NCBI GenBank assembly: GCA_025352225.1
Contig: JANXTT010000153.1
Location: 6,602-70,601 of the forward strand
DNA length: 64,000 nt
Origin: Mucilaginibacter sp.
Lineage (GTDB): Bacteria > Bacteroidota > Bacteroidia > Sphingobacteriales > Sphingobacteriaceae
Direction of reading: 5' to 3'
In this document: positions 2,412 through 28,661 of the stretch, piece after piece
How positions within the stretch are numbered: the first letter of the stretch is position 1
Layout of the letters: each line of letters starts with the position of its first letter
Notes under the pieces: model-generated
The model's database searches: none
What the model saw: the letters and a program-made list of their open reading frames with translations, nothing else
What the model was told of the DNA's origin: nothing
Translations under genes and position numbers: made by a program

Positions 2412-5273
2412 ATGAAATTCAATTATCGTTTATCATTTTTCACCTTGTTGGCGGCAGCTTTAACTTCCTACGGAAGCTTTGCACAAGTTAAACCGCAACC
2501 ATCTCCAAAAAGCAAACCTATACCATTAGTTAACCAATTAATGGCCGATAATTTACTACCTATTGATCCGGCTGTAATTATTGGTAAGCTTCCTAATGGC
2601 TTAACTTATTATATCCGTAAAAACACACAACCAAAAAACAGGGCTGAATTGTATCTGGTTAACAAAGTAGGTTCGGTATTAGAAACTGATGCACAACAGG
2701 GCTTGGCTCACTTTACTGAACATATGGCTTTTAATGGTACAAAAGACTTTCCGAAAAACGAATTGGTGAGTTATCTTCAAAAATCGGGTGTTAAATTTGG
2801 TGCCGATTTAAACGCTTATACTTCATTTGACGAAACTGTTTACCAGTTGCCCCTACCTACAGATAGTGTTAAAATATTTGAAAAAGGGTTCACTATTTTG
2901 GCCAACTGGGCAGGTATGGTAAGTTTTGATACTGACCAAATTAATGGCGAGCGTGGTGTTGTTTTAGAAGAACAACGTTTGAGGGGGAAAAATGCCCAAG
3001 AGCGCATTCAACAACAAATATTACCCGTAATTTTAAACAACTCGCGTTATGCGCTGCGGCTGCCTATCGGTAAAGAAGAAATACTGAAAACATTTAAACC
3101 GGAAACTATAAAAAGCTTTTACCGTGATTGGTACCGCCCCGATTTGCAGGCCGTAATTGCTGTTGGCGATTTTGATGTTAAAAAAGTGGAAGAACTTATT
3201 AAGCAAAATTTTTCAACGTTAAAAAACCCGGTTGCAGAAAAAAAACGCATAAAATACAATGTACCACCAAGCTTAGGCACAGCGGTTAAAATTGTTACTG
3301 ATAAAGAATTTCCCTACACCCTGGCAGAAATTATTGTTAAACACCCCGCAAGTACAATAAAAAACCAAACCGATTATTTGCAGAATATGCGAATCAGTCT
3401 TTTTAATAGTATGCTCAATGCAAGGCTTGGCGAATTAACTCAAAAAGCTGACCCTCCATTTTTATATGGAGCAACAAGCTATGGTGGTTTTTTAGCAAAT
3501 TTAGATGCTTTTACTTCTATCGCTGTTGCCAAGCCCGGCGAGCTTGAAAAGGCTGTTAAAGCTGTGGTTGCAGAAACCGAACGTGCCCGCAAATTTGGAT
3601 TTACTGAAACCGAACTTGAACGCGCAAAGGCGTCCGCGCTTACAAATATTGAAAACTCCTGGAAAGAAAAAGACAAAACAAAATCAGTAAACTTTGTGCG
3701 CGAATACCAGCAGCACTTTTTGAAAGGCGAGGCTATACCGGGTATTGATTTTGAATACGACTTTCAAAAAAATCATTTCGATCAGATTAAACTGATTGAG
3801 ATTAATGCGATGGCTGGGAAGTTTATTAATGACCAGAACCGCGACATTATTGTTGAAGGGCCTGAAAAAGAAAAAGATAAATTACCAACACAACAAGCCT
3901 TACTTAGCTGGATAAATACAGCCGGCCAGGGTGTTACCGCTTATGTTGACAATGTAAGTAAAAAACCCTTGTTAGAGAAAGTGCCTGTTGGTACTAAAAT
4001 AATATCAGAACAAAAAGATGCGGCTATTGGCACATCAACCCTTACTTTAGGCAACGGAGTAAAAGTTATATTAAAACCTACCGATTTCAAAAACGATCAA
4101 ATACTAATTAACGGCTATAGCTTTGGCGGCACATCCTTAGCCAGCGATCAGGATTTTACCTCAGCTAAATTTGCGGCAAGTGTAGAAAACAGTAGTGGCG
4201 TTTCCGATATCAATGAAATACAATTAGACAAAATGCTAACCGGCAAAAATGTTTCAATGTCGCCTTACATTAGCGAAATTACACAAGGCGTTAACGGACA
4301 CTCATCACCCAAAGAGCTTGAAACCGCACTGCAGTTATTATATCTATATTACACCCAGCCACGTAAAGATAATGACATTTGGCAATCAACAATAACACAG
4401 ATAAAAGCTTCTTTAGTTAACCGAGGGCTTGATCCTTCCAGTGTTTTTCAGGATACATCAGCAGCTATTTTAAACAGTTATAATTTCAGAAGGATGACAA
4501 CAAGCCTGGCGCAGTTAAATACTGCCAGCCTTGATAAAGCCTACTCGTTTTATAAAGATAGGTTTGCTGATGCAAGTGGTACAACGTTTACCATTGTAGG
4601 TAACTTTGACAATGAAAAAATTAAACCTTTGTTAGAGAAATATCTGGGCGGATTACCCGCACTTAACAGTAATTCTACTTATAAAAACCTGGGCATCCAT
4701 CCACCTGCGGGGCAGGTATCCAAAACTGTATATAAAGGCATCGGCGATAAAAGCACCGTTCAACTGGTATTTAGCGGAGACTACGATTACAACGAGGCCA
4801 ATAATACCCAAATGGATGCTATGGGCGAGATACTTCAAATTAAAATGATTGACAGGTTACGCGAAAAAGAAAGTGGTGTATATGCACCAGGTGTAAGCGC
4901 CCGCTATAGTAAATTACCCGAAGGCCGATATACCATTACCATACGTTTTGGTTGTGCACCAATTAATATTGACAAGTTGGTTAATGCTGCTATGGATGAG
5001 ATCAACAAACTTAGACAAAATGGCGCCGAGCTAACAGATATACAAAAATTTGTTTCGGAGGATAAAAGGGCAACCGAAGTTCAGTTAAGAGAAAACGGTT
5101 TTTGGTCGAGCTACTTAAGCAGTACATCACAAAACCAGGAAAACCCCGACAATATATTAAATTACACAAAAAGGCTGGAGCAAGTTACAGTTCAAAGTAC
5201 TAAAGAAACAGCTAATAAATATTTAAGCGGAACTAATTTGATTAAATTAATATTAGTGCCCGAAAAAAAGTAA
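2412..5273 (+). CDS. M16-family (pitrilysin/insulinase-like) zinc metallopeptidase, secreted
   Basis: HxxEH zinc motif HFTEHMAFNG. About 950 aa, with duplicated M16 active and inactive halves. Signal peptide MKFNYRLSFFTLLAAALTSYGSFAQ follows the ATG at 2412. The ORF opens at TTG 2364. Confidence 0.9.
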   Translation: MKFNYRLSFFTLLAAALTSYGSFAQVKPQPSPKSKPIPLVNQLMADNLLPIDPAVIIGKLPNGLTYYIRKNTQPKNRAELYLVNKVGSVLETDAQQGLAHFTEHMAFNGTKDFPKNELVSYLQKSGVKFGADLNAYTSFDETVYQLPLPTDSVKIFEKGFTILANWAGMVSFDTDQINGERGVVLEEQRLRGKNAQERIQQQILPVILNNSRYALRLPIGKEEILKTFKPETIKSFYRDWYRPDLQAVIAVGDFDVKKVEELIKQNFSTLKNPVAEKKRIKYNVPPSLGTAVKIVTDKEFPYTLAEIIVKHPASTIKNQTDYLQNMRISLFNSMLNARLGELTQKADPPFLYGATSYGGFLANLDAFTSIAVAKPGELEKAVKAVVAETERARKFGFTETELERAKASALTNIENSWKEKDKTKSVNFVREYQQHFLKGEAIPGIDFEYDFQKNHFDQIKLIEINAMAGKFINDQNRDIIVEGPEKEKDKLPTQQALLSWINTAGQGVTAYVDNVSKKPLLEKVPVGTKIISEQKDAAIGTSTLTLGNGVKVILKPTDFKNDQILINGYSFGGTSLASDQDFTSAKFAASVENSSGVSDINEIQLDKMLTGKNVSMSPYISEITQGVNGHSSPKELETALQLLYLYYTQPRKDNDIWQSTITQIKASLVNRGLDPSSVFQDTSAAILNSYNFRRMTTSLAQLNTASLDKAYSFYKDRFADASGTTFTIVGNFDNEKIKPLLEKYLGGLPALNSNSTYKNLGIHPPAGQVSKTVYKGIGDKSTVQLVFSGDYDYNEANNTQMDAMGEILQIKMIDRLREKESGVYAPGVSARYSKLPEGRYTITIRFGCAPINIDKLVNAAMDEINKLRQNGAELTDIQKFVSEDKRATEVQLRENGFWSSYLSSTSQNQENPDNILNYTKRLEQVTVQSTKETANKYLSGTNLIKLILVPEKK

Positions 5274-5286
5274 ATAAGCTTTAAAC

Positions 5287-5321
5287 AAAAAGGGTCTTGC
5301 AAATAACGCGAGACCCTTTTT
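5287..5321. terminator. Bidirectional rho-independent terminator between convergent genes
   Basis: AAAAAGGGTCTTGC-aaataac-GCGAGACCCTTTTT. The stem is 9 bp and G+C-rich, with an A-run on one side and a T-run on the other. It lies between the M16 peptidase stop (5273) and the fucosidase stop (5344). Confidence 0.85.
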
Positions 5322-5343
5322 GTTTATAACAATTTTAGTATCG

Positions 5344-7005
5344 CTATCCGGGGATAACCTTTAACGCATACGCTGGTTGATCAGCAACGTTATCCGGAAG
5401 AGACACCACTAAACCGTCAGTAGTACGGTTAATATTCAAGGGTTGTTTTGTACCTGTTAACTCAACACGGCCAATCTCTTTTTGATAATACTGACTGCCT
5501 GAGGCCATGCTTTTGATTGTGATTTTACCATCAACCGGTTTACCAAGCGCAATAGCATAAACAATATCACCTTTGGCTGTAAATCTAATATCCTGTGCGC
5601 CAAACGGCTTGCCTTTACCTTCGTTAAACCCTTGCGCGCTTAAAGGTGCGGCAGCGGCAATAGCAGGGCCCTCGCCAAATACTTTCCAGGGGCGTGTTCC
5701 AAAAATGCTCTCGCTACTGTTTTTCATCCAAGCACCAATGCCTTCTACAACTGTCCGTTCTAGCTCATCAATGCTGCCGTCGCCCCTTACCGGGATATTA
5801 AGTAGCAAATTACCATTCTTGCTCACCACGTCAGCCAGGGTATGAATAACAGTTTTAGCAGTTTTGTAACGTTTTTGGTTATATATCCGGCGGTCGTAAT
5901 GCCAATCGCCTATGCAAGTATCTGTTTGCCAAACAAAGGGCTCTATCTTATTGCTTTGGCCACGCTCTATATCCCAAACCATGCATTTCTGTTGTTCTTC
6001 GGTTAATATTTTCCCGTTTAATACTGCATTTAATTTTCCGTTATGCCTTTTCATATTTGTATTGTAAAAATGGGCGGCAATTTTTAATCCCACATCACTC
6101 ACCGGCCACAAGGGCAACGCAGTATCATCAAAATAAATCAGATCGGGCTCATATTTATTAATGAGGTCAATTGTTCTGTTCAAAAATTTTTCGCAGTAGG
6201 CAGTACTTGGTGCAAGGGCGCCATTCCCCCAATTCCATTGCGAATTTATTGCAGATGGATTGGCACTATTAGCACTTAAAGCATGTTTTTGCGCATACAA
6301 CTCCTGTGGATCAAAACCATCCCACCATAACCCTTTTCCATCAGCTTTGGTTAAATTACCATCATAAGGCATACCTGCAAACGGCCCGCTTTTATCAGCT
6401 AACTGTGCAGATTCCATCCATCGCCAAGTATGCGCGGCGTGTATGCTAACCCCAAAAGGCAAACCCTGCTTTTTAGCCGCTTTTGCCCAACCCCCAATGA
6501 TATCCTTTTTGGGTCCTATCTGTGTTGAATTCCACGATTGATGCTTACTGTTAAACAGATCAAAGTTATCATGATGATTAGCGAGCGCTACAAAGTACTG
6601 TGCCCCCGCATTTTTATATAAGGATACGATCTCATCGGGATGCCAGTTTTCTGCTTTCCATTGATTAATTACATCCTTAAATCCGAACTTGGACGGATGT
6701 CCATATTTTTCAAGATGGAATTTATATTTTTCAGTCCCTTCCTGATACATACCCCGGGCATACCAGTCGCCATCTTCGGGCTGACATTGCGGGCTCCAAT
6801 GAGCCCACATACCAAATTTGGCATCCTGAAACCATTCAGGTACATGATATTGTTTTAAAGAATCCCACGAGGGCTTAAAAACGCCTGTAGCAACACGCTC
6901 TTCATTATTGATATATTCCTGTATCCTTGCCGCGTTAGCAAATTGGGTTAACCACATGGCAGATGCCGCTCCTGCAATGCCTTTTATAGCTGTTCTTCTC
7001 TTCAT
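5344..7005 (-). CDS. alpha-L-fucosidase (GH29)
   Basis: 553 aa with GH29-type blocks (HWSPQ..., YFVALANHHDNFDLFNSKHQSWNS). N-terminal twin-arginine-like signal MKRRTAIKGIAGAASAMW. Confidence 0.85.
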   Translation of the reverse strand: MKRRTAIKGIAGAASAMWLTQFANAARIQEYINNEERVATGVFKPSWDSLKQYHVPEWFQDAKFGMWAHWSPQCQPEDGDWYARGMYQEGTEKYKFHLEKYGHPSKFGFKDVINQWKAENWHPDEIVSLYKNAGAQYFVALANHHDNFDLFNSKHQSWNSTQIGPKKDIIGGWAKAAKKQGLPFGVSIHAAHTWRWMESAQLADKSGPFAGMPYDGNLTKADGKGLWWDGFDPQELYAQKHALSANSANPSAINSQWNWGNGALAPSTAYCEKFLNRTIDLINKYEPDLIYFDDTALPLWPVSDVGLKIAAHFYNTNMKRHNGKLNAVLNGKILTEEQQKCMVWDIERGQSNKIEPFVWQTDTCIGDWHYDRRIYNQKRYKTAKTVIHTLADVVSKNGNLLLNIPVRGDGSIDELERTVVEGIGAWMKNSSESIFGTRPWKVFGEGPAIAAAAPLSAQGFNEGKGKPFGAQDIRFTAKGDIVYAIALGKPVDGKITIKSMASGSQYYQKEIGRVELTGTKQPLNINRTTDGLVVSLPDNVADQPAYALKVIPG

Positions 7006-9539: not shown

Positions 9540-10103
9540 TTAACTTCCCGAAACTTGGTTCTCTAATTCAGCATACCATTCTTCGCCATATTTCCTTATC
9601 AGCGGCACTTTCAAAAATTCATGTACGCGTACCTGAAGCTCATCACCAAAACTGCAAGCAGGGCTGCATATGCTCCACCGATCATAATTTAAAACATCAA
9701 ATTCTGGATAGGTTGTAATACGAATAGGATATAAATGGCAGGATATAGGTTTTTGCCATTCAATGGCTCCATTTTCCCATGCCTTTTCAATGGCACATTT
9801 GGTAATGCCGTTTTCCCAAATAACGTAGGCGCATTCTTTATTTATATCAACGCAGGGAGTAGTATAATCACCTTCAAAATCCTTAACATAAGTACCCTCG
9901 CGTTCAATTGTTTGTATGCCTTTAGCCGTCATAAATGGCTTTACCTTAGGGTAAATCTCATTCAATATATCCAGTTCTGCTGCTTCTAAAGGGGCTCCTG
10001 AGTCGCCTTCGAGGCAACAGGCTCCCTTACATTTGTTAAGATTACACACAAAATTTTGCCTCACCACATCCTCATGCACCAGCGTATTCAGAACTTCTAT
10101 CAT
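9540..10103 (-). CDS. Cys-rich conserved hypothetical (recalled as DUF3109; CxxCxxCC-like metal-binding family)
   Basis: 187 aa with cysteine clusters CNLNKCKGACCLEG, TPCVDINKECAY, KCAIEKA, SCHLYP and CSPACSFG. Confidence 0.6.
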   Translation of the reverse strand: MIEVLNTLVHEDVVRQNFVCNLNKCKGACCLEGDSGAPLEAAELDILNEIYPKVKPFMTAKGIQTIEREGTYVKDFEGDYTTPCVDINKECAYVIWENGITKCAIEKAWENGAIEWQKPISCHLYPIRITTYPEFDVLNYDRWSICSPACSFGDELQVRVHEFLKVPLIRKYGEEWYAELENQVSGS

Positions 10104-10115
10104 TTTAATGTTTAG

Positions 10116-10886
10116 TTATTGGCTATTTAAGGGAAATTTCAACCCTTTAGCTTGCGTGAGGTCCATTGTTAGGCTTCCCACTACCACCTCTGCCTGGGCT
10201 TTTACAGGTATTCGGTTTTTATCATCAGTTATCCAAAGATAAAATCTACTGTCCTTTCTGAAAATATTTCCAGGTATAATTTCCGGGCTAAATTTAAGAC
10301 AATTAAATTTACCCATAGAACATTCTACGGTTTCTTTCCCAAAATAAGTTATGGTTAGAGCTTGTATTTTATCTTCTAAAAAATAATGGAAAGTGATTTT
10401 TTCGCCAACTTTTATCTTCGACATATCAAGGCAGCGGGCATAAAAGTAAGCTGATGGAAAATCAAATACCTTTCCCAAAAATGGAAATATACCTTTACTG
10501 GCGGTAATTTTGTTGTCCTCATGGTTAAATACTACATTATCAGTATGCCGATATTTACCTTCACGACGGTTCTCTCTATATAAATAAGGTAACAAGGTGG
10601 TGCAATCGATGAAAGACTCATAACGATTACGCACTTTGAAAAAAATATCGAAAGTTCCGGTTGTTTTTCCATCCGCAACTATACGGTAACTTGGCTTACC
10701 TTCAAATTTAGTATCAGAATTACTTACCTGCAAATCAGCTTCTGCAGCAGTAAATATGCCGTAATTAAACTTATAATGCAGATGCTCGCCGGGCTGGAAA
10801 GCAACTTGCCCGTCTTTATTGAGTTCTTGTGAAAACGTATTTGTGCTTATCAATATACATGCAAAAAGCAGAGTCCAGTGTTTCAT
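10116..10886 (-). CDS. secreted conserved hypothetical (recalled as DUF3108)
   Basis: Signal peptide MKHWTLLFACILISTNTFSQ follows the ATG at 10886. The ORF opens upstream at 10910. The remainder looks beta-rich. The family name is recalled, not searched. Confidence 0.55.
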   Translation of the reverse strand: MKHWTLLFACILISTNTFSQELNKDGQVAFQPGEHLHYKFNYGIFTAAEADLQVSNSDTKFEGKPSYRIVADGKTTGTFDIFFKVRNRYESFIDCTTLLPYLYRENRREGKYRHTDNVVFNHEDNKITASKGIFPFLGKVFDFPSAYFYARCLDMSKIKVGEKITFHYFLEDKIQALTITYFGKETVECSMGKFNCLKFSPEIIPGNIFRKDSRFYLWITDDKNRIPVKAQAEVVVGSLTMDLTQAKGLKFPLNSQ

Positions 10887-10918
10887 ATAGAAGGTAGTTA
10901 CAAAAAGCAATCCAAAGT

Positions 10919-11434
10919 TTAATCTTTTCTTTTATAGATAGGAACTGTTGAACATGGCTCGCCGTACATCAAGCTTTTTACCACCGGGGTTAAGCGTTTA
11001 GCTAATTCCACGTAGGCGGATTGAGGCACAGCGATATCACCACAACCTTTTATTACGATACGCTGATCACGGTATTGTTCAATATTTAACGCGTTTAACT
11101 CTTTTTCAAACAATATGGTTTCTAACGCAGCACTATCGCCAAACACAACCTCTCTGGCATACGGCGCCAGCCTATTGGCCAACAACATATAGGCCCAGGT
11201 GGGCACTATGGCATCTGCAGAGCAAGTTATACCAACATTTTTATTGCTGTATTGTTGCCAGTCATGATTTTTAACGAAATCGCGAAAGTCTTTTTCCCTC
11301 AACATTAAACCTTGAAATAAATTATCTTTAATGTCATATATAATACGTTCTCCTGGTGGGTAAAAATTAGCAGGGTCAATACTTACCAGTCCACTTTGAG
11401 CAACTTTATTTACTATGTTTTCTTGGATGTCCAT
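10919..11434 (-). CDS. conserved hypothetical (recalled as DUF2480)
   Basis: The ORF opens at TTG 11449 and the first ATG is at 11434 (MDIQENIVNKVAQSGLVSIDPANFYP...). The family name is recalled from Bacteroidota annotations. Confidence 0.55.
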   Translation of the reverse strand: MDIQENIVNKVAQSGLVSIDPANFYPPGERIIYDIKDNLFQGLMLREKDFRDFVKNHDWQQYSNKNVGITCSADAIVPTWAYMLLANRLAPYAREVVFGDSAALETILFEKELNALNIEQYRDQRIVIKGCGDIAVPQSAYVELAKRLTPVVKSLMYGEPCSTVPIYKRKD

Positions 11435-11443
11435 ATTTATATT

Positions 11444-11485
11444 AAACAAAAAATCCGGAAAAGGTTTAAACTACCTCGCCCGGAT
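11444..11485 (-). terminator. Probable rho-independent terminator after the ppiD-like gene
   Basis: On the minus-strand RNA: AUCCGG-gcg-AGGU-aguuuaa-ACCU-uuu-CCGGAU, followed by UUUUUGUUUAAU. This is an outer 6-bp stem plus an inner 4-bp stem. It lies between the ppiD stop (11508) and the next start (11434). Confidence 0.5.
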
Positions 11486-11507
11486 ACAAAATTACTTATT
11501 AAATTGA

Positions 11508-13625
11508 TTATAATATCTTCGATCTGTAATCTTTCACATGTGCTTTATTTTTCAATGCTTCTAATATTGAGCCCTCTGCACGTTGCAATAACGCCTGTCC
11601 GATTTGCTCTTTTTGACGTAAGGTATTAGTTAACGCCGGCGGATTAATAAAGCTATCTATTATATAAACATACACCCCTTTATCGCCTTCAATTGGTTTT
11701 GACAGCTTATTTGGTGCGGAACCAAATATAGAACCAACTAATTTATTTTCCTGGCCTCCGCCCGGAATTATAGGATTAGCAAAAACGATGTTTTGAACCG
11801 GTGTAACCTTCCCTCCTATTTTTTGAGCTACCTGATCTATAGAAGGGGCTCCACTAAGGGTACTTGAAAACTTATCTGTAAGTTGTTTTGCTTTAACCAT
11901 ATTTAAAACCATCGGCTGTATTTGCTTTTTAACAGCATCTAATGCTAATAATCCTTTAGGCTTAACCGCTGTTAAACGAGCAACAACATATTGATTGCCA
12001 GATTGATAAACCTGATCTGTAAAATCGCCCTTTTCAGCTTTGTTAAACACCCATCTAATCAAGTCGCGGGCGTTATCTAACCCTGCAATGCCCGAAGCAA
12101 CTCCATTAACATCTTCGGCAACTTTTTTAGTTAAACCCTCTTTTTTAACTTCGTTATCAAAATTATCTTTTGTTAATGATGCTAAAAACGCCTGAGCTTT
12201 TGAATAAGCTAAAGATTGTGTTTTGCTACTTGAGGTTAAAGGCTTATCAACTATTGCAACTTTTACAACTTTCGACGAACCTATTTGGTTTAAAATTTCA
12301 ATCAAATGAACACCGTATTGCGAAGTAACAATTTTAAAATCGCCTTTTGCGCCATTAAAAACGGCATCTTCAAAAACAGGAATCATTGCGCCCCTGCCAA
12401 AAGTACCTAAGTCGCCACCTTTAGCAGCAGATCCTTTATCCAATGAATTAGCTGCTGCCAGTTCTGCGAAAGTTTTTTTACCGCTTTGTATCATTTTTTT
12501 TAAGGAGTCGGCTTTTGCAAGTGCTTGTTTTACTCCACCACTTGATGCAATATCAAGCAAAATATGACGAGCTTTAACAGAATCAGGGCTGATGCGAGAA
12601 TCTATTAGCTTAGCTAATTTATAAGATCCGTTTGAAAAATATGGCCCATAAATATATCCTTTAGCTGCATTCAGCATTACTGTATCCAATTTGGGATCTA
12701 ATTGTCCTTTTTTCTGATAAACTATTGGTGCTTTTGTTTCAGCATTTACAGCAACAAAAAGCGAATCGCTGGCAGTAGATTTAAATTCAGGAATTAATTT
12801 TTCAACTTGTAGTTTTATAGCGGCCGAATCATCTTTTGATGGCGATGCATCAAAGGTTACATAATCAAAATCGCGTAACTCTTGCTTATTCTTAAACTGA
12901 TTTTTATGCTCTTCATAATAACTTTTATAATCATCATCAGTTAAGGTTATTTTGTTATCTGGAATTGATGAATAATCAATGTTTACGTATTTAAAATTTG
13001 CAAGCTTGTTTTTAGCCTCGTAATCATCTTTGGCATCTAAACTATTAACATACAATCCATTCTTAATTAATGTTAAATACTTTTCAAATCTTTTACTTTC
13101 AATTATTTGGGTGACGAAGGCCTTCCACTTCGGTTTCATGGGGTCATCCGCTTTTGCAGTTAGGAGATTACGTAAAAATACGTCGCGCTGCGCCCTGTCA
13201 AACTCTCCTGTTTGTCTGTTAGTAAATGCCTGTACAATTTGACGGTCAGGGTTTGGGCCACTGATCAGCGCATTGGCTTCTGTTTCACCTACTACTAACC
13301 CGGTTTTGTCAATTTCTTTTTTTAGTATGACCTTACTAACCATTTGGTTCCACGTAGTTTCTTGAACGTAGCTTAAAATTTGTGGACTTACACTTGATTG
13401 ACCTGATTGTTGTTTGAATTGAGCCGAATTTTGCTCAACGCTGGTATTAAAATCCGCATAAGGAATTTTTTCTCCGTCAACTTCCCCAACATCATTTCCA
13501 GAGCCTTTCATCATTGAGCCACTATAATGAATTACTTCACCTACAATAAATGCAAAAAGCGCAAGGCCTATAACCACGGCTACTATTTTCCCAAACCGTT
13601 CGCGCAAAAAACCCATTATACCCAT
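11508..13625 (-). CDS. periplasmic chaperone / peptidyl-prolyl isomerase, PpiD/SurA-like
   Basis: 705 aa. N-terminal membrane anchor (FGKIVAVVIGLALFAFIVGEVI). Central parvulin-type segment (VKARHILLDIASSGG ... GGDLGTFGRGAMIPVFEDAVF). Confidence 0.8.
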   Translation of the reverse strand: MGIMGFLRERFGKIVAVVIGLALFAFIVGEVIHYSGSMMKGSGNDVGEVDGEKIPYADFNTSVEQNSAQFKQQSGQSSVSPQILSYVQETTWNQMVSKVILKKEIDKTGLVVGETEANALISGPNPDRQIVQAFTNRQTGEFDRAQRDVFLRNLLTAKADDPMKPKWKAFVTQIIESKRFEKYLTLIKNGLYVNSLDAKDDYEAKNKLANFKYVNIDYSSIPDNKITLTDDDYKSYYEEHKNQFKNKQELRDFDYVTFDASPSKDDSAAIKLQVEKLIPEFKSTASDSLFVAVNAETKAPIVYQKKGQLDPKLDTVMLNAAKGYIYGPYFSNGSYKLAKLIDSRISPDSVKARHILLDIASSGGVKQALAKADSLKKMIQSGKKTFAELAAANSLDKGSAAKGGDLGTFGRGAMIPVFEDAVFNGAKGDFKIVTSQYGVHLIEILNQIGSSKVVKVAIVDKPLTSSSKTQSLAYSKAQAFLASLTKDNFDNEVKKEGLTKKVAEDVNGVASGIAGLDNARDLIRWVFNKAEKGDFTDQVYQSGNQYVVARLTAVKPKGLLALDAVKKQIQPMVLNMVKAKQLTDKFSSTLSGAPSIDQVAQKIGGKVTPVQNIVFANPIIPGGGQENKLVGSIFGSAPNKLSKPIEGDKGVYVYIIDSFINPPALTNTLRQKEQIGQALLQRAEGSILEALKNKAHVKDYRSKIL

Positions 13626-22424: not shown

Positions 22425-23075
22425 TTAAGCGTTTTTAACTAAAATTGTCTCCATTACGTTTGCGGCATCTTCGCACATATCGGTAGCGGTTTCCAATGCT
22501 GATAATATTTCCTTGTATTTAATAAGCTGTATTGCATCCTTTTCATATAAAAACAGATCGGCTACAGCACGGTCAAATACATCATCCGCCTGATGCTCTA
22601 TGCTGTTGATGCGAATGCAGGCATCAGCAATATTGCGTATATTTTTAAGGTTCTTTAACTCTTTTACAGCTTTATCCATTTCTATGCTTCCTTGTAAAAT
22701 GAACATAGATAACTTTCTGATGGCCTCAATCAAATCATCTATCCGGTACAAGCTCATCCGGTTTGCCGATCCTTGTATATTATCTGCAATATCATCAATA
22801 GCCCCTGTAAGCGCTGCGATGTCTTCCCTATCAAAAGGCGTAATAAAGTTTCTACTTAATTCGATATATATCTGATGCGATATTTCATCTCCTTTAGTTT
22901 CCAGTTTATCAATTTTAGAGTACAAATCTTCCCGAAAATCAGAATCAGCAGAGTTTACTGCTTCAACTAACATCTTCGCCATATCCACTACATTGCTGGA
23001 TGCCTGTTCAAAAAGAGGGAAAAATACCTTACGGCCTTTTGGAACAAAGTATTTAAATATTTTAGTTAGCGTCAT
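22425..23075 (-). CDS. DUF47-family protein (PhoU-like, YkaA type)
   Basis: 216 aa, all-helical. Start FVPKGRKVFFPLFEQASSNVVDMAKML and ...FITPFDREDI... are typical of DUF47 proteins, which normally precede a PiT phosphate transporter. Confidence 0.85.
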   Translation of the reverse strand: MTLTKIFKYFVPKGRKVFFPLFEQASSNVVDMAKMLVEAVNSADSDFREDLYSKIDKLETKGDEISHQIYIELSRNFITPFDREDIAALTGAIDDIADNIQGSANRMSLYRIDDLIEAIRKLSMFILQGSIEMDKAVKELKNLKNIRNIADACIRINSIEHQADDVFDRAVADLFLYEKDAIQLIKYKEILSALETATDMCEDAANVMETILVKNA

Positions 23076-23127
23076 ATCAAGCTTTGCATATGTTTGGCAA
23101 ATATAATTCCAACTTATTAATTCTACG

Positions 23128-24186
23128 TTAACCTTTCAATACCGGTAATACCGGGAAAGGTGACTGCCGTATTTTTTGCAGGGTAAATCCAAATGTAGAA
23201 CCAACACCTTCAGTACTGCGCACATTGATCGTTTGCTGATGCGACTCTATAATATGCTTAACAATAGCCAAACCTAAACCTGATCCTCCTATCTGCCTTG
23301 ATCTACTACTATCTGTACGGAAGAAGCGTTCAAATAGCCGCGGAAGAAACTTTTCTTCTATCCCAACTCCATCATCAGTAACTTCCACCAATATCTGCTC
23401 ATGCAGGTCATAGAGCCTTATGCCAGTAGTACCATTTTCTTTACCATATTTAAACGAGTTATCAATTAGATTGACTAATACTTGTGTTATTTTTTCCCGA
23501 TCGGCATTAACCCAAGCGGGTTCATCATATTTATCTTTAAAGGAAAGCTTAATTTTATACCGTTGCGCTTTCATTTCTAATGATTCTACCACTTCTTTAA
23601 CCAAGTCGTTGATTTTGAATTTTGAATAATTAATGGGTATCTCGCCCGACTCGAGTTTAGATATTTCGTCCAAATCTTTAATCAGATAACTTAACCTGTC
23701 TACATTTTTTGATGCCTTCGCTAAAAATTGCTTTACCATATCGGGATCATCCATATCATCCTGCAAAGCTTCAATATAACCTTGTATAGCAAAAAGTGGC
23801 GTTTTAAATTCATGCGATATGTTTGATAGAAAATCACGGCGAAACTGCTCCTGCTTTTTTAAATCCTCAATCTCTATCTTTTTATCCCGCGCCCACTCTT
23901 TCACTTCCTTTTCAACATCGTTTATCGGATCAGAAGTAACATGATCACCAATAGCGTCTTTAAGGTCCTTACCAAGTTTCAGGTTATGAATAAGCTTATA
24001 TATGATCTTTATTTTACCTACAATATATTTCTCTATCATATAATAAATAAAAATAAAGCTGCTCACCATCGTAGCCGAAAAGGTGATAGCCACATCATAC
24101 CAGCTATGCCTGAAATAATAGTTTACTGCCGATATAGTGATAGATACGGCAAGGGCATTAATAAAAACAAGTACACGTAATTTCAT
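23128..24186 (-). CDS. sensor histidine kinase with two TM helices and almost no external loop (PhoR/intramembrane-sensing type)
   Basis: H-box FLSNISHEFKTPL, N-box LIDNSFKYG, G-boxes DDGVGI and GGSGLGLAIVK. Two N-terminal TM helices are separated by about 6 residues (RHSWYD). Confidence 0.9.
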   Translation of the reverse strand: MKLRVLVFINALAVSITISAVNYYFRHSWYDVAITFSATMVSSFIFIYYMIEKYIVGKIKIIYKLIHNLKLGKDLKDAIGDHVTSDPINDVEKEVKEWARDKKIEIEDLKKQEQFRRDFLSNISHEFKTPLFAIQGYIEALQDDMDDPDMVKQFLAKASKNVDRLSYLIKDLDEISKLESGEIPINYSKFKINDLVKEVVESLEMKAQRYKIKLSFKDKYDEPAWVNADREKITQVLVNLIDNSFKYGKENGTTGIRLYDLHEQILVEVTDDGVGIEEKFLPRLFERFFRTDSSRSRQIGGSGLGLAIVKHIIESHQQTINVRSTEGVGSTFGFTLQKIRQSPFPVLPVLKG

Positions 24187-24213: not shown

Positions 24214-24912
24214 CTACGATTTGTAAATTATTACTTCCCACCTAAAAGCCCATTTCCAAGTTATTTTATAATTAAATATTTTAGCTTTTTTTAAAAGTTC
24301 AATAAGCTCCGCATGTTTAAAGCTTCGCCTTACTGATAGGGGTCCATCATAACACGCCATTTTGCTGCTGGTAAAAACATTTGCAATAAAAATAACGGCG
24401 TAATAAAGTACCCAATGGCGGTGCAGGTCGGTTATAATTACAGCCCGTTTACTACAATCAAGCATTTTCAAGACCACTTTTACCCACTCTTCGTCATCAA
24501 AATGATGGGTAAACAAACTAGAAAACACAATATCAAACTGGTTGGGTTTTAAACTATCACCCGTTACATCAGCTAAAATAAAATCAATATTGTTATACAA
24601 CTTTGCTTTTTTCTGGGCAAATACTACTGTGGAGGGTGTGGCATCAATTCCGGTTAACGTTAATTCAAGATCATTACTTTTTGCCCAATTAGCTATTGCC
24701 CTTAAGGCATCTCCGCCTCCACAACCCCAATCACTAATATGGAAATTGTTTGCTACTTTTAGGTTTTTTAATGCTTTGATGATTGTTTTATGTCCGCCAA
24801 ACAGTGCATTCATCTTCTCCAAGCCGTTTAACACAGGCACAACCTCGCTTTCTGGTAAACTAAAGTCGTCCATTATTTCCAACTCGGCCGCACGCTTGCT
24901 TAGGTCAATCAT
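24214..24912 (-). CDS. class I SAM-dependent methyltransferase
   Basis: Motif I ISDWGCGGGDALRAIA and post-I TLTGIDAT. 232 aa. It starts 2 nt after the stop of the preceding oxidoreductase gene. Confidence 0.85.
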   Translation of the reverse strand: MIDLSKRAAELEIMDDFSLPESEVVPVLNGLEKMNALFGGHKTIIKALKNLKVANNFHISDWGCGGGDALRAIANWAKSNDLELTLTGIDATPSTVVFAQKKAKLYNNIDFILADVTGDSLKPNQFDIVFSSLFTHHFDDEEWVKVVLKMLDCSKRAVIITDLHRHWVLYYAVIFIANVFTSSKMACYDGPLSVRRSFKHAELIELLKKAKIFNYKITWKWAFRWEVIIYKS

Positions 24913-24914
24913 AA

Positions 24915-26039
24915 TCAGGTAAAAGGTTGACCATGTGTCTTACTGATTAAATAATTAGCCAACGGCGGCAACGCATTTAACAATTTAAGGCTCATTGTAG
25001 TGGTCTCGTTTTGCCCAAACATGCGCTGTAGTTGTCTGCCCACCCAAAGCCTGCGCGCAAAATGCCTTTCCCATTCGCCTGCATACGCCTGTTCTAATTT
25101 GAGCCGCTGCTGCGGATTAAAAGTATTCCCCTTATAGTATTTCACAACATTACCCGACAAAATTTTGGCTGAATGAATAGCCATAGTCATGCCGTTACCA
25201 CAAAGCGGGGCAATCATTCCGGCGGTATCGCCACTCATTAATATATGATTTTCAACAGGCTGTTTTTTTTCAAAAGATATTTCGTTGATCACCTCAGGTT
25301 TGTCGAACAAAAATTCTGCATGATCAAAAAGCGCTTTCAGATTAAGGTTCTTGCAGATGATATTTTTTTCGAGCTCCGGCAAACTACCATACCTGCGCAG
25401 GTCATCGCGGTGAGCCAGGTAACACATGCAATACCGATCCCCTTCCACTTTACTTACGCCGCAATAACCATTTTTATAATTATTCAACTGAATCAGATCG
25501 TCCGGAAAATCTGCACGGATATGAAATTTAACAGCCAGATACGGGCTGCGCTTGTAAAAAAAATCGCGTTTAAGTTTTTGATCAAGATTAGAGCGCTTAC
25601 CAAACGTACCAATAACTAATGGCGCAGTTAATACCTTACCGGGAAGAGTAATTTCGAAGGTTTCATCTTTAAAACAAATATCTTCAACCTTAGTATCCAG
25701 TAAAAAATTCACCCCCTCGGCAAGTGCTTTTTTATATAGATAATGGTCAAATGTATACCTACTCAGGCCAAAGCCGCCGAGATCCAGTTTTTTAGAAACT
25801 TTAGTGCCCGATACCGATGTTACCTCCAAACGGTTAATACGAGCCACATTTAGCTCATCAAGGTTAATATCAAGGCCGCTTAAAAACGGAATCACTTCGT
25901 TAGAGATATATTCGCCGCATACCCGGTGGAAAGGATAACTTTTACGCTCAATCACGGTTACCCTCAAACCAGCCCTGTTCAATAATATTGCATTGAATAA
26001 CCCGGCCAGCCCGCCGCCAACAACAATTACCTCTTTCAT
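24915..26039 (-). CDS. FAD-dependent oxidoreductase (geranylgeranyl-reductase / aromatic-hydroxylase-like)
   Basis: N-terminal dinucleotide fold VIVVGGGLAGLFNAILLNRAGLRVTVIERK. Later GD motif LMSGDTAGMIAPLCGNGM. Its start overlaps the PKS stop (ATGA, 26036-26039). Confidence 0.85.
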   Translation of the reverse strand: MKEVIVVGGGLAGLFNAILLNRAGLRVTVIERKSYPFHRVCGEYISNEVIPFLSGLDINLDELNVARINRLEVTSVSGTKVSKKLDLGGFGLSRYTFDHYLYKKALAEGVNFLLDTKVEDICFKDETFEITLPGKVLTAPLVIGTFGKRSNLDQKLKRDFFYKRSPYLAVKFHIRADFPDDLIQLNNYKNGYCGVSKVEGDRYCMCYLAHRDDLRRYGSLPELEKNIICKNLNLKALFDHAEFLFDKPEVINEISFEKKQPVENHILMSGDTAGMIAPLCGNGMTMAIHSAKILSGNVVKYYKGNTFNPQQRLKLEQAYAGEWERHFARRLWVGRQLQRMFGQNETTTMSLKLLNALPPLANYLISKTHGQPFT

Positions 26040-27148
26040 AGCTTTGTTTCCAATACCATGCTTTCAACTGTTAAACCGGGGCCAAAAGCAAAACTTAAAA
26101 CTTTCTGCTCAGGATCAGGTTTTGAGCGCAACAGCTTTTCCAGCACAAAAAGTATAGTGGCTGATGACATATTACCATATTCTTTAAGCGTTTCATAACC
26201 CAATTTATTAGCTTCAGCAGATATATCCAAAGCCTGTTCTGTAGCTTCCAATATGCTTCGGCCGCCCGGATGCACAGCAAAGCAGCTTAACTGGTCAAAG
26301 GTTAAACCCGCCCGCATTAATAGCCGGTCTGTTAAACTTTTAATGTGCTTTTTTATTTGTTTTGAAACTTTAGAAGTTAGTTTCATTTCAAAACCATAGT
26401 CGCCAACATACCAACCCATATCGCCTTTAGCTTCGGGTATAAACTCCGAATAAAAACTATTTAATGATAAATGCGGACCCGTGATAACCCTTTTCGAATG
26501 GTGCTCTATCAACAGAGCCGCCGCCCCATCAGAAAACAACGAGTTAGCTACCCAGTTATCTAACGTATTTGTTTTTTGAAAGTGGAGTGTACATAACTCA
26601 ACACTTACCACCAATACTTTTGCATTAGGATTGGCACGGCAAATGTAATCGGCAACTTTAATGGCGTTTATGGCACCATAGCAACCCATAAAATTGATAC
26701 AAGTACGTTCAGTATCCCGGTTAAGATTAAGTTTTTCAACCAAATCAATGTCAATCCCGGGCGCGTACATTCCTGTACAACTAACTGTAATGAGATGTGT
26801 AATGGTTGATGCAATACCAGCGTCAAAAAAACTAAAACACTTTTTACACGCTTCGTAAGCAATATCAATTGCTGTGTCCTGGTATAATTTTAGTCTTTTT
26901 TGGGTATTAGGGAAGGGCTCCAGGTTGGCAGCCTTTTCGAAAAATGTATTATGATTAGTATCGTTAAAGCCAAAATCAGGAATTACAGAGTACCTGCAAT
27001 CAATCCCCGAGCCATCATAAATTTGTTTGAGCCTTAAAGCGTTATTAGTATCTAACCCAAAGGCATTTACCATAAAGTGGTAAATTGTTTGCTGTGGAAT
27101 ACAATACTGTGGGTTAGCTGTGCCAATGGCGCTAATACAACTGCTCAT
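26036..27148 (-). CDS. type III polyketide synthase (chalcone/stilbene synthase superfamily)
   Basis: The catalytic Cys-His-Asn triad contexts are all present: VSCTGMYAPG, FAVHPGGRSIL, GNMSSATILFVL. 370 aa. Confidence 0.9.
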   Translation of the reverse strand: MSSCISAIGTANPQYCIPQQTIYHFMVNAFGLDTNNALRLKQIYDGSGIDCRYSVIPDFGFNDTNHNTFFEKAANLEPFPNTQKRLKLYQDTAIDIAYEACKKCFSFFDAGIASTITHLITVSCTGMYAPGIDIDLVEKLNLNRDTERTCINFMGCYGAINAIKVADYICRANPNAKVLVVSVELCTLHFQKTNTLDNWVANSLFSDGAAALLIEHHSKRVITGPHLSLNSFYSEFIPEAKGDMGWYVGDYGFEMKLTSKVSKQIKKHIKSLTDRLLMRAGLTFDQLSCFAVHPGGRSILEATEQALDISAEANKLGYETLKEYGNMSSATILFVLEKLLRSKPDPEQKVLSFAFGPGLTVESMVLETKL

Positions 27149-27160
27149 ATATAAATGGTA

Positions 27161-27694
27161 TTATAAGGCAGTTTCAACATTTATAGAGATAGTTGCTTCG
27201 TTAGATAATATCATGCTGTGGTTACCTACATTAAAATCAAGCCGGTTAATTTTAAAACTTCCTTTATAAACAGTTGTACTGCCATTTACAATATACGCAA
27301 AAGGCAGTACAATACGCTTTGTTGTAGTTTTAATTGTTAAATCAAACACCCCTAGGTAGTTATTACCGCTTTTATGTTTAAAAGAAATTGATTTCATGGT
27401 AATTTTTGGATATTCATCCACATCAAAATAGTCTTCCTTTTTGAGATGTTTATCACGCATCTCGTTCTCAGAGCTTAATGTCCGGGTATCTACCGACGCC
27501 GTAATATTACTAGTGCTTAAATGATCTTTATCAAACTGGATAGCCGCCTCCAATCCACCAAAACTCCCTTCGGTGTTGATTCCCATATTTTTGATCTGGA
27601 ATCCAATTGTGCCTTTGGTTACTGTCTGCTTAGATTGAGCTAAAGCAATTAAATTACAACAAACCAGTATAAAATACAAACCAATTTTCTTCAT
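27161..27694 (-). CDS. YceI-family (polyisoprenoid/lipid-binding) secreted protein
   Basis: Signal peptide MKKIGLYFILVCCNLIALAQ follows the ATG at 27694. YceI-type blocks are present (GINTEGSFGG ... DTRTLSSENEMRDKHLK...YFDVDEYPKITMKS). It ends 12 nt upstream of the PKS start. Confidence 0.85.
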   Translation of the reverse strand: MKKIGLYFILVCCNLIALAQSKQTVTKGTIGFQIKNMGINTEGSFGGLEAAIQFDKDHLSTSNITASVDTRTLSSENEMRDKHLKKEDYFDVDEYPKITMKSISFKHKSGNNYLGVFDLTIKTTTKRIVLPFAYIVNGSTTVYKGSFKINRLDFNVGNHSMILSNEATISINVETAL

Positions 27695-27758
27695 TTTTAA
27701 TTGCTTAACAAATAATTTCAAACCTAACGATTTACCCCGAGTATTGTTACATTAGTGT

Positions 27759-28661
27759 ATGCAAATTTTACAATTGATCATCCCCAGTCGCTCTTCAATT
27801 GCCCATTTGCGTTTTGTATTCTCATTGTTTTTAATGCCTGTTTATCTATTTGCTTACAGCCAGGCACCGATAATACACATTGGTTATGCTTTTTTGGCAT
27901 TTTTGATATGGCATTTACTAGCTTTCCCGGCCAGTAACGGTTACAACAGCTATTTTGATAAAGATGAGGATAGTATCGGGCTGTTAGCTAAACCGCCGGT
28001 GGTTGATATTAGTTTATATTATTTTTCGCTATTACTGGAAATTTTTGCCTTTTTACTTGGCCTTATAATAAGCTGGGAATTTGCGTGTGCTGTACTGCTT
28101 TACGGTATCATGTCAAAATTATATAGCCACCCTGCAACACGTTTAAAAAAGTATCCGGTTGTTAGTTTTATAACTGTTTTCTTTTTTCAGGGTGCGTTTA
28201 TTTACTGGAGCACATATGCTGCGGTATCTGGCTTAAGTTTATTTTATGGATGGAATCTGAACTTTATGATCGCTGGATTAATTTGTTCATGCCTGATTGG
28301 TGCTTCTTACCCGCTTACCCAAGTTTATCAACATGCAGAAGATAGTCGCCGCGGCGATTATACCCTAAGCTTATTGCTTGGCTATAAAGGCTCGTTTATA
28401 TTCTCTGGCTTTTTATTCGCTATCGCGATTGTGCTATCCTTTTTTTACTGGGAGCGCGCGGGTATCCTATCTAACTTTTACTTCTTTTTAATCTGCGCCG
28501 CGCCAATATTTTTATTTTTTAATTATTGGTTCTATAAAGTAGGGCAATCAACCCGCAATGCTAATTTTAAAAACGCCATGCTCATGAATTTTATCAGTTG
28601 CGGCTGTATGTTGATTTATTTTGGAATATTAGCACTCAGAGCGTCGCGATTGTTGCTATAA
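27759..28661 (+). CDS. UbiA-family aromatic prenyltransferase
   Basis: 300 aa with about 8 TM helices. First Asp-rich motif NGYNSYFDKDED, second YQHAEDSRRGDY. Transcribed divergently from the YceI-PKS operon across a 64-nt gap. Confidence 0.8.
   Translation: MQILQLIIPSRSSIAHLRFVFSLFLMPVYLFAYSQAPIIHIGYAFLAFLIWHLLAFPASNGYNSYFDKDEDSIGLLAKPPVVDISLYYFSLLLEIFAFLLGLIISWEFACAVLLYGIMSKLYSHPATRLKKYPVVSFITVFFFQGAFIYWSTYAAVSGLSLFYGWNLNFMIAGLICSCLIGASYPLTQVYQHAEDSRRGDYTLSLLLGYKGSFIFSGFLFAIAIVLSFFYWERAGILSNFYFFLICAAPIFLFFNYWFYKVGQSTRNANFKNAMLMNFISCGCMLIYFGILALRASRLLL

Follow-up and report, generated by a model that had tools for sequence, protein, structure and literature searches.

A type III polyketide synthase locus of Mucilaginibacter paired with a dedicated UbiA-type prenyltransferase: a candidate pathway for a prenylated phenolic lipid

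Introduction

What does a bacterial gene cluster make when its type III polyketide synthase (PKS) is encoded next to a membrane prenyltransferase and a secreted lipid-binding protein, and which of these genes belong together? The question is raised by five genes in a 64,000-nucleotide stretch of DNA from Mucilaginibacter sp. (assembly GCA_025352225.1, contig JANXTT010000153.1, positions 6,602 to 70,601 of the forward strand), hereafter termed the window. On its minus strand, the genes for a secreted YceI-family protein, a type III PKS, an FAD-dependent oxidoreductase (the FAD enzyme) and an S-adenosylmethionine (SAM)-dependent methyltransferase (MT) follow one another, and the gene for a UbiA-superfamily prenyltransferase (UbiA) is transcribed divergently from them. 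Type III PKS regions have been flagged in Bacteroidota by genome mining, and we found no product report for any of them.

An earlier reading of this DNA, made without database searches (the sequence-only reading), had taken the locus for a phenolic-lipid operon, possibly extended by a prenylation step and by a periplasmic carrier of its own. We propose that this locus, which is found in Sphingobacteriales and Cytophagales, directs the synthesis, at the cytoplasmic membrane, of a phenolic lipid with a prenyl group, a reading to which we assign a probability of about 0.55. The most likely product is a lipid of the alkylresorcinol type that is prenylated and methylated and probably also hydroxylated. 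Comparative genomics establishes that UbiA and the PKS are partners and that the MT and the FAD enzyme are members of the operon. The chemistry proposed for each enzyme is drawn from homologous systems and is worded accordingly below.

The UbiA prenyltransferase and the PKS are recurrent genomic neighbours

PKS-centred loci were searched with one genome per species. At least 596 related PKS loci were found, the best 80 of which were studied with 10-kb flanks, using tblastn and a clustering of every open reading frame (ORF) up to 7 kb away from the PKS. Among these 80 loci, the FAD enzyme is encoded in 59, the MT next to the PKS in 58 and UbiA in 44. Mucilaginibacter-type loci have the order UbiA<>YceI-PKS-FAD-MT (<> marks divergent transcription), with UbiA in 16 of 20 loci. 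Daejeonella and Pedobacter have the order UbiA<>PKS-MT-FAD, with UbiA in all 13 loci, and many Cytophagales show FAD, UbiA<>PKS-MT, or UbiA<>PKS alone. Pairs of UbiA and PKS without an MT or FAD gene nearby also occur (loci L026, L048, L055 and L061). Beyond FAD, MT, UbiA and YceI, no other consistent partner of the PKS emerged from the ORFs within 7 kb in the 80 loci. Lineage-specific neighbours, namely T9SS-tail, deacetylase-like, RF1, TerC, glycosyltransferase and MlaE look-alikes as judged by reading their sequences, were dropped.

Seen from the side of UbiA, the picture is the same. A metagenome scan seeded with two motifs specific for the UbiA subfamily yielded 80 loci, 64 of them evaluable, and in 58 of these 64 a PKS gene lies beside UbiA: 38 pairs are divergent, 19 are part of co-directional UbiA-PKS-MT-FAD operons, and in one locus the PKS is nearby. 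In one four-gene UbiA-PKS-MT-FAD operon (L126) the stop and start codons overlap. The arrangement was found again in more than 100 independent loci and is therefore no mere accident.

Moreover, the two proteins occur as a single polypeptide. WP_149244224.1 of Dyadobacter sp. 32 (P0252) is a 652-aa fusion, in which Pfam assigns residues 19-271 to UbiA and 294-648 to the type III PKS. The cluster of this fusion comprises six proteins, which come from independent assemblies, and the MT and FAD genes follow directly after the fusion gene. On a metagenomic contig (L156, 5920-7962) UbiA and PKS likewise share a single ORF, of 680 aa, and the fusion locus of a Dyadobacter-type contig (L172) is listed in Table 1. 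In L172, a type II NADH dehydrogenase gene is found two genes upstream of the fusion. The reciprocal adjacency, the three gene orders and the recurrent fusion make a functional partnership between UbiA and the PKS very likely.

A sceptical reader could regard UbiA as a mere conserved neighbour whose function in the membrane is unrelated, in which case the operon would make an unprenylated, hierridin-like lipid. In the window UbiA is encoded on the opposite strand, and some loci do weigh against a prenylated product: two Mucilaginibacter loci (L011 and L025) keep YceI-PKS-FAD-MT and have lost UbiA, Hymenobacter and Rufibacter, with the order FAD-PKS-MT, have UbiA nearby in none of their 20 evaluable loci, and the UbiA subfamily includes a clade without PKS (see below). 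However, adjacency in 58 of 64 loci and in three gene orders, operons with overlapping codons and a fusion protein in six assemblies speak against it, and we strongly disfavour this explanation, giving it hardly any weight. The prenylation step that the sequence-only reading had placed in a type III PKS phenolic-lipid pathway thus gains strong genomic backing. Of the co-occurrence of PKS, UbiA and YceI that it had put forward as a check, the link to UbiA proved strong, albeit not universal, and the link to YceI weak.

The UbiA proteins form a small subfamily with an altered second motif

UbiA scores well above the Pfam cut-off (62.9 versus 34.2 bits), and all 34 subfamily members tested match the model. 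At least seven segments of the protein are hydrophobic. Its AlphaFold2 (AF2) model has a pLDDT of 92.7, and Foldseek searches with this model retrieved UbiA-superfamily structures only (DGGGP synthase, AfUbiA, UBIAD1 and ApUbiA), with TM scores of 0.57-0.66 and 15-19% identity. A sequence search of the Protein Data Bank (PDB) with the single UbiA protein gave no match, and a search with a UbiA profile returned chlorophyll synthase alone, at E=0.02.

The sequence-only reading had credited UbiA with both Asp-rich motifs. The first one, NSYFDKDE, fits the canonical form NxxxDxxxD in part: the invariant residues N63, D67 and D69 line up with the N-D-D of the chlorophyll synthase motif NDFYDRDID, and the third Asp position is variable. 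The second departs from the canonical form. In TQVYQHxEDxxRGD, aligned to chlorophyll synthase, an invariant Gln188 is found in place of the first Asp, and a canonical second motif of the form DxxxD or D-x6-D was therefore rejected. An acidic cluster is present nevertheless, E194, D195 and D200 being invariant.

This subfamily is small and well delimited, since an exhaustive search with UbiA among 1.84 billion representatives returned just 740 relatives at E<=1e-3. Five proteins of the subfamily (P0254, P0256, P0265, P0291 and P0379) are ~500 aa long and carry a C-terminal extension of ~210 aa past the last membrane helix, which appears to be soluble and matches no Pfam family.

In a neighbour-joining (NJ) tree of UbiA, gene order follows phylogeny. 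Some features of the subfamily count against aromatic prenylation as we propose it. Without the first Asp of the second motif, donor and acceptor chemistry may differ from those of canonical aromatic prenyltransferases. Furthermore, the NJ tree contains a PKS-less clade within the same subfamily, and in two loci of this clade a Caroten_synth (PF04240) gene directly precedes UbiA (Table 1). The pairs of lycopene elongase and CruF are a parallel to this adjacency, which hints that the UbiA subfamily may use non-aromatic acceptors in some lineages.

The PKS is a candidate alkylresorcinol synthase

The PKS matches the Pfam models Chal_sti_synt_N and C with 94.8 and 87.6 bits (cut-off 27). Its catalytic Cys124 (SCTGMYAPG), His293 (HPGG) and Asn326 (GNMSSAT), which the sequence-only reading had found in intact contexts, are invariant across 25 relatives. 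The best relative is 79% identical. Among solved structures, the closest relatives are Steely1, PKS18, 7cb3/7d41 and 4b0n. The entries 7cb3 and 7d41 hold one and the same sequence, named merely chalcone/stilbene synthase, and 4b0n is named 'polyketide synthase III'. Steely1 is an acylphloroglucinol-type synthase and PKS18 a long-chain pyrone synthase.

The composition of the operon, which is like that of hidABC and of a planctomycetal operon (see the last section), suggests that the PKS acts as an alkylresorcinol synthase, which would perform the aldol C2-C7 cyclisation of a fatty-acyl-primed tetraketide. This cyclisation is unproven because of two observations that weigh against the proposed product: the PKS is ~28-34% identical to the characterised planctomycetal enzymes, a range obtained with OCR (optical character recognition)-noisy sequences, and its nearest solved relatives are makers of pyrones or acylphloroglucinols rather than of resorcinols. 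This low identity to proven alkylresorcinol synthases and the closest solved structures (Steely1, PKS18 and 4b0n) would also fit a PKS that makes an alkylpyrone, an acylphloroglucinol or an alkylresorcylic acid, which UbiA would then prenylate, and so would the pairs of UbiA and PKS that occur without MT or FAD. An acid acceptor would mirror that of the plant olivetolic acid geranyltransferase. On the other side, MT-FAD-type III PKS operons that have already been characterised reportedly give alkylresorcinols (PMC10896814, PMC6836626), and the cyclisation specificity of a PKS cannot be read from overall similarity. We consider these other products unlikely and retain the alkylresorcinol.

A second kind of PKS locus was seen in Mucilaginibacter. 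In a metagenome-assembled genome (MAG) of Mucilaginibacter sp. (L022) and in M. terrae (L024), positions 10001-12250 encode a PKS and an FAD enzyme only, without MT, UbiA or YceI and in a different neighbourhood. The identities of the PKS and the FAD enzyme are 59-60% and 65-67%, respectively, and these loci may be paralogues that exist in addition to the main cluster.

The methyltransferase resembles planctomycetal Mtr, and the FAD enzyme is a probable ring monooxygenase

The MT exceeds the cut-offs of the Pfam models Methyltransf_25/11/31/12 and has no transmembrane (TM) segments. A profile built from 58 MT orthologues matches Mtr of Gimesia maris collinearly and over its full length; on the mtr gene, positions 3-86 and 96-227 of the hidden Markov model (HMM) score 25 and 46 bits, the match being split over two frames by OCR frameshifts. 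The profile of the FAD family is likewise collinear with Gimesia Fdo, but the match is weak (best segment HMM 34-123, 23.7 bits, in a noisy sequence). The Gimesia maris genes used were the codon-optimised versions from the supplement of PMC10896814, the text of which contains OCR frameshifts. These frameshifts account for the failure of direct tblastn searches with MT and FAD enzyme to match the Gimesia genes, both of which were recovered by the profile search. The authors of the planctomycetal study relate their operon, of the composition MT-FAD-PKS, to the cyanobacterial hidABC genes (PMC10896814), and it is with this operon that the match to Mtr groups the MT of the window.

The FAD enzyme passes Pfam FAD_binding_3 (40.6 bits, cut-off 22). 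In the PDB, the profile of its family is nearest to flavin halogenases and monooxygenases, the halogenases CmlS and PltA being the nearest solved relatives. An assignment as flavin halogenase was rejected: GWVWMIP of CmlS corresponds to GYCGVSK here, there is no WxWxIP, and the position of the catalytic Lys is not conserved.

Alternatively, the FAD enzyme could act on the side chain. If it resembled geranylgeranyl reductases (GGRs), it would saturate the prenyl or alkenyl chain, and the product, a dihydroprenyl alkylresorcinol methyl ether, would lack a quinone-type head. Two features of the enzyme point in this direction and weigh against ring hydroxylation, namely its top NCBIfam match, TIGR02032 of the GGR superfamily (96 bits), and an invariant Cys41 in RVCGEY, which resembles PCGG, a motif of GGRs. 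Moreover, the products of the agqABCD cluster, with which we compare the locus below, are said to be alkyl-O-dihydrogeranyl-methoxyhydroquinones, the dihydrogeranyl group appearing in the title of Awakawa et al. 2011 (ChemBioChem 12:439). However, the TIGR02032 score is under the cut-off of 158.8, while FAD_binding_3 passes, and in the PDB ranking of the profile halogenases and monooxygenases stand above GGR. In addition, of 21 Hymenobacter/Rufibacter loci that have no UbiA, 20 encode the FAD enzyme together with PKS and MT; judged by this gene content, the enzyme is independent of a prenyl group. Finally, the FAD oxidoreductase of the hid operon serves the pathway of hierridin B, which is unprenylated and requires ring hydroxylation (PMC6836626). 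Since the FAD enzyme joins PKS and MT without UbiA and its hid counterpart belongs to a pathway with an unprenylated, ring-hydroxylated product, we favour a ring monooxygenase and regard a prenyl reductase as improbable.

The YceI protein is an optional accessory at best

The YceI protein scores 98.7 bits against a Pfam cut-off of 23.7, and its relatives in the PDB include polyisoprenoid-binding proteins and E. coli YceI. Its N-terminus is a hydrophobic signal segment, MKKIGLYFILVCCNLIALA, which ends in ALA and is followed by Q. Within the 80 PKS-centred loci, tblastn found YceI in the operon in 18 of 20 Mucilaginibacter-type loci and in none of the other 60 (17 by ORF clustering). A sensitive HMM scan gave the same restriction, YceI adjoining the PKS in Mucilaginibacter-type loci alone; it is missing from the PKS loci of Daejeonella, Pedobacter and Cytophagales. 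Close homologues of the protein are confined to Mucilaginibacter-like genomes, and more distant ones are found in unrelated contexts.

Does YceI then belong to the pathway at all? It may instead be part of a Mucilaginibacter backbone of the genes HD, OprB, YceI, histidine kinase (HK), PhoU_div and PHO4, co-transcribed with the PKS by position only, and bind another isoprenoid or quinone lipid such as menaquinone. Five positional orthologues with 47-52% identity were looked up, in M. ximonensis, M. panaciglaebae, M. terrenus and two metagenomic contigs. All five lie directly after OprB in loci without PKS, UbiA, FAD or MT genes, which weighs against a role in the proposed pathway, and in four of them the HK-PhoU_div-PHO4 block comes after YceI. 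The restriction to one lineage and the unrelated contexts of the distant homologues agree with such a backbone gene.

Other observations tie the protein to the PKS. The gap between the two genes in the window is 12 nt and contains no terminator-like site. One metagenomic contig of an unrelated lineage (L162, 684-5013) carries a five-gene co-directional UbiA-PKS-MT-FAD-YceI operon, in which YceI stands at the opposite end compared to the window. Moreover, "Saltatorellus ferox" has a lipid/isoprenoid-binding protein gene inside a type III PKS operon (PMC10896814). Together with the window these are three apparently independent associations of the YceI type. We put the backbone explanation just short of an even chance. 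Judged from the distribution of the gene, YceI would be an optional accessory at best and not an obligate part of the pathway, and the L162 and S. ferox cases keep a functional link to it plausible. As to the periplasmic carrier of the sequence-only reading, secretion and these two cases speak for it, and the lineage restriction and the five orthologues without PKS against it.

Gene layout and surroundings of the locus

The coordinates of the features are given in Table 1. Re-reading the junctions gave the layout of five genes, the spacings and the translational coupling just as the sequence-only reading had described them: 12 nt separate the YceI stop from the PKS ATG, the PKS stop and the FAD start share an ATGA overlap, the MT ATG comes 2 nt after the FAD stop, and the divergent ATG codons of YceI (27694) and UbiA (27759) are 64 nt apart. 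The longest ORF for YceI, 27161-27721 on the minus strand, starts with TTG, and the ATG at 27694 is the likelier start. All five proteins exceed the Pfam gathering scores of their families, which are Chal_sti_synt_N/C, FAD_binding_3, Methyltransf_25/11, YceI and UbiA. Neither an acyl-AMP ligase nor an acyl carrier protein (ACP) is encoded among the genes of the cluster according to the ORF list and Pfam, in agreement with the sequence-only reading.

Table 1. Positions of the genes of the locus in the window and of selected features of related loci.
Sequence	Feature	Position	Strand	Remarks
Window	Methyltransferase (MT)	24214-24912	minus	232 aa; class-I SAM-dependent; last gene of the biosynthetic run
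Window	FAD-dependent oxidoreductase	24915-26039	minus	374 aa; probable ring monooxygenase; Pfam FAD_binding_3
Window	Type III PKS	26036-27148	minus	370 aa; Chal_sti_synt_N/C
Window	YceI-family secreted lipid-binding protein	27161-27694	minus	177 aa from ATG 27694; first gene of the minus-strand run
Window	Divergent intergenic region YceI/UbiA	27695-27758	no strand	64 nt; presumed bidirectional promoter region
Window	UbiA-superfamily membrane prenyltransferase	27759-28661	plus	300 aa; divergent; small PKS-dedicated subfamily
L172	UbiA-PKS fusion locus	5001-6959		Dyadobacter-type contig
L102	Caroten_synth gene	5317-5994		directly upstream of UbiA 5995-6867
L103	Caroten_synth gene	5317-5991		directly upstream of UbiA 5995-6867

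Within the divergent region, ~25 nt before the YceI ATG, the minus strand carries the octamer TAGGTTTG (27726-27719), which fits TAnnTTTG, the -7 promoter consensus of Bacteroidetes. It is the sole match to this pattern on either strand (scanned over 27600-27800 on the plus and 27650-27850 on the minus strand). A scan for sigma-70-type promoters and terminators, which was not built for Bacteroidetes promoters, gave counts equal to the shuffled expectation.

Only 27 nt after the MT stop begins a histidine kinase gene, which together with a PhoU_div gene occupies 22425-24186 of the minus strand. Both recur across Sphingobacteriaceae with an identity of 70-78%, in most cases together with a PHO4 phosphate transporter (L161, L168, L169 and L171). 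They were rejected as members of the cluster: their conservation is limited to Sphingobacteriaceae, and they remain where the PKS genes are absent. Because the block persists without PKS genes, we assign it to the backbone. Homologues of PHO4, HD and OprB are found nowhere within the 64-kb window. The local GC content is the same as that of the surroundings and the HK/PhoU_div synteny is kept across Sphingobacteriaceae; the locus is native, vertically inherited and not mobile.

A proposed pathway and its significance

In the first step of the pathway, the PKS would extend a fatty acyl thioester with malonyl-CoA and cyclise it, most likely to a 5-alkylresorcinol. The starter would come from the general fatty acyl pool, since the cluster encodes no ligase or ACP. 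In the second step, for which the link between the genes is genomic and the chemistry predicted, the dedicated UbiA would transfer a prenyl chain onto the aromatic head group. UbiA probably acts directly on the PKS product, because UbiA and PKS are the minimal recurring pair and are fused in Dyadobacter. The third step is modelled on homologous operons: the class-I MT would O-methylate a phenol and the FAD enzyme would hydroxylate the ring, giving a methoxy-hydroquinone or a quinone-type head. The fourth step is the weakest. In Mucilaginibacter-type loci, the co-transcribed periplasmic YceI protein may bind or shuttle the isoprenoid-bearing product as an accessory.

A wider proposition, which we put forward tentatively and find doubtful in its entirety, is that many Sphingobacteriales and Cytophagales make an undescribed class of membrane lipids, namely prenylated alkyl-(methoxy)resorcinols or hydroquinones, by means of a private altered-motif UbiA that is fed directly by the PKS. 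The (hydro)quinone form might serve as a redox carrier, antioxidant or envelope stabiliser rather than as a sporadic antibiotic, and in some lineages YceI might traffic the lipid towards the outer membrane. The literature that we searched, a limited collection, contains no report of a characterised type III PKS, alkylresorcinol or cluster product from Bacteroidota, and this has to be weighed against our proposal.

Our analysis turns one of the type III PKS regions flagged in Bacteroidota into a testable idea, namely a PKS that works with a dedicated, sequence-divergent UbiA, sometimes within a single polypeptide. If the proposal is correct, the membranes of a phylum that abounds in soil and rhizosphere would be shown to contain a further kind of lipid, a prenylated phenolic one and possibly a quinone, and the compact bacterial fusion of PKS and prenyltransferase could be used for engineering cannabinoid-like meroterpenoids. 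Measured against agqABCD and hidABC, the step taken here is an incremental one, and we therefore consider it interesting rather than surprising.

Comparison with known systems

The plant cannabinoid route offers a parallel to the coupling and fusion of UbiA and PKS seen here. In this route, tetraketide synthase, a type III PKS, and OAC make an alkylresorcinol-type acid, which a UbiA-type geranyltransferase of the membrane (CBGA synthase) C-prenylates. However, the route is eukaryotic, uses a short-chain starter and a carboxylated-ring acceptor, and its known homology with the Bacteroidota proteins is at the level of the superfamily. Reviews of it exist (for example PMC10263468).

The YceI protein of the window belongs to the same Pfam family as the polyisoprenoid-binding proteins TT1927b of T. 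thermophilus, E. coli YceI and the Campylobacter/Helicobacter homologues, with alignable structures, and it is secreted. What sets it apart from them is the association with a PKS, which is lineage-restricted and not obligate.

The sequence-only reading had called the operon srs-like. The logic of PKS, then methylation, then hydroxylation is indeed shared with srsABC of Streptomyces griseus, which makes alkylresorcinol methyl ethers and alkylquinones. SrsB, however, is annotated as an isoprenylcysteine-carboxyl-methyltransferase (ICMT)-type enzyme (PMC6669644), whereas the MT of the window is a soluble class-I enzyme (Methyltransf_25/11) without a TM segment that resembles Gimesia Mtr. The likeness is thus one of analogy and not of orthology. 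An srsABC-like operon of Jiangella has a divergent UbiA gene (PMC13608877).

Closer in composition are hidABC of Cyanobium and the planctomycetal operon, which combine MT, FAD enzyme and type III PKS as the window does; the MT of the window is homologous to Gimesia Mtr. C15 and C17 alkylresorcinols are the products of type III PKSs from planctomycetal operons of this kind (PMC10896814). For HidC, the report of an alkylresorcinol synthase is based mainly on biosynthetic logic and assays in vivo. Pentadecylresorcinol is methylated by recombinant HidA, the hydroxylation has been proposed for HidB, and the enzyme that chlorinates hierridin C is not known (PMC6836626). In both systems, the alkylresorcinols would subsequently be methylated and hydroxylated (PMC10896814, PMC6836626); for the MT and the FAD enzyme of planctomycetes, these roles have not been demonstrated by experiment. 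In contrast to the window, these operons normally lack UbiA and YceI and have another gene order, although a hid-like cyanobacterial cluster with a prenyltransferase is found in Raphidiopsis (PMC8086630).

Functionally, the proposed pathway finds its best precedent in agqABCD of Actinoplanes missouriensis, which has the same set of enzyme classes as the window and many of the related loci. According to papers that cite it, this characterised cluster encodes a type III PKS, a monooxygenase, an MT and a UbiA-like O-prenyltransferase (PMC10896814, PMC7692728, PMC4044012), and the UbiA-type enzyme O-prenylates the type III PKS product (PMC4044012, PMC10896814). An agq-related cluster of Micromonospora has a flavoenzyme of the acyl-CoA dehydrogenase type beside its PKS, MT and UbiA genes (PMC7587189), which suggests that the agq oxygenase may belong to another family than the FAD enzyme. 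Furthermore, agqABCD, which is likened to the window by enzyme classes, comes from a different phylum and lacks YceI, and the UbiA of the window differs by its non-canonical second motif and its small subfamily of its own. The sequence-only reading was not aware of a characterised case of the combination in Bacteroidota, in agreement with our search of a limited literature, and it overlooked the same enzyme classes in Actinoplanes. Because agqABCD has already been characterised, the enzyme combination is not new in itself. New here are its broad conservation among Bacteroidota, a private subfamily of UbiA in which a motif is altered, the fusion of UbiA and PKS in one protein, and a YceI that is specific to one lineage.

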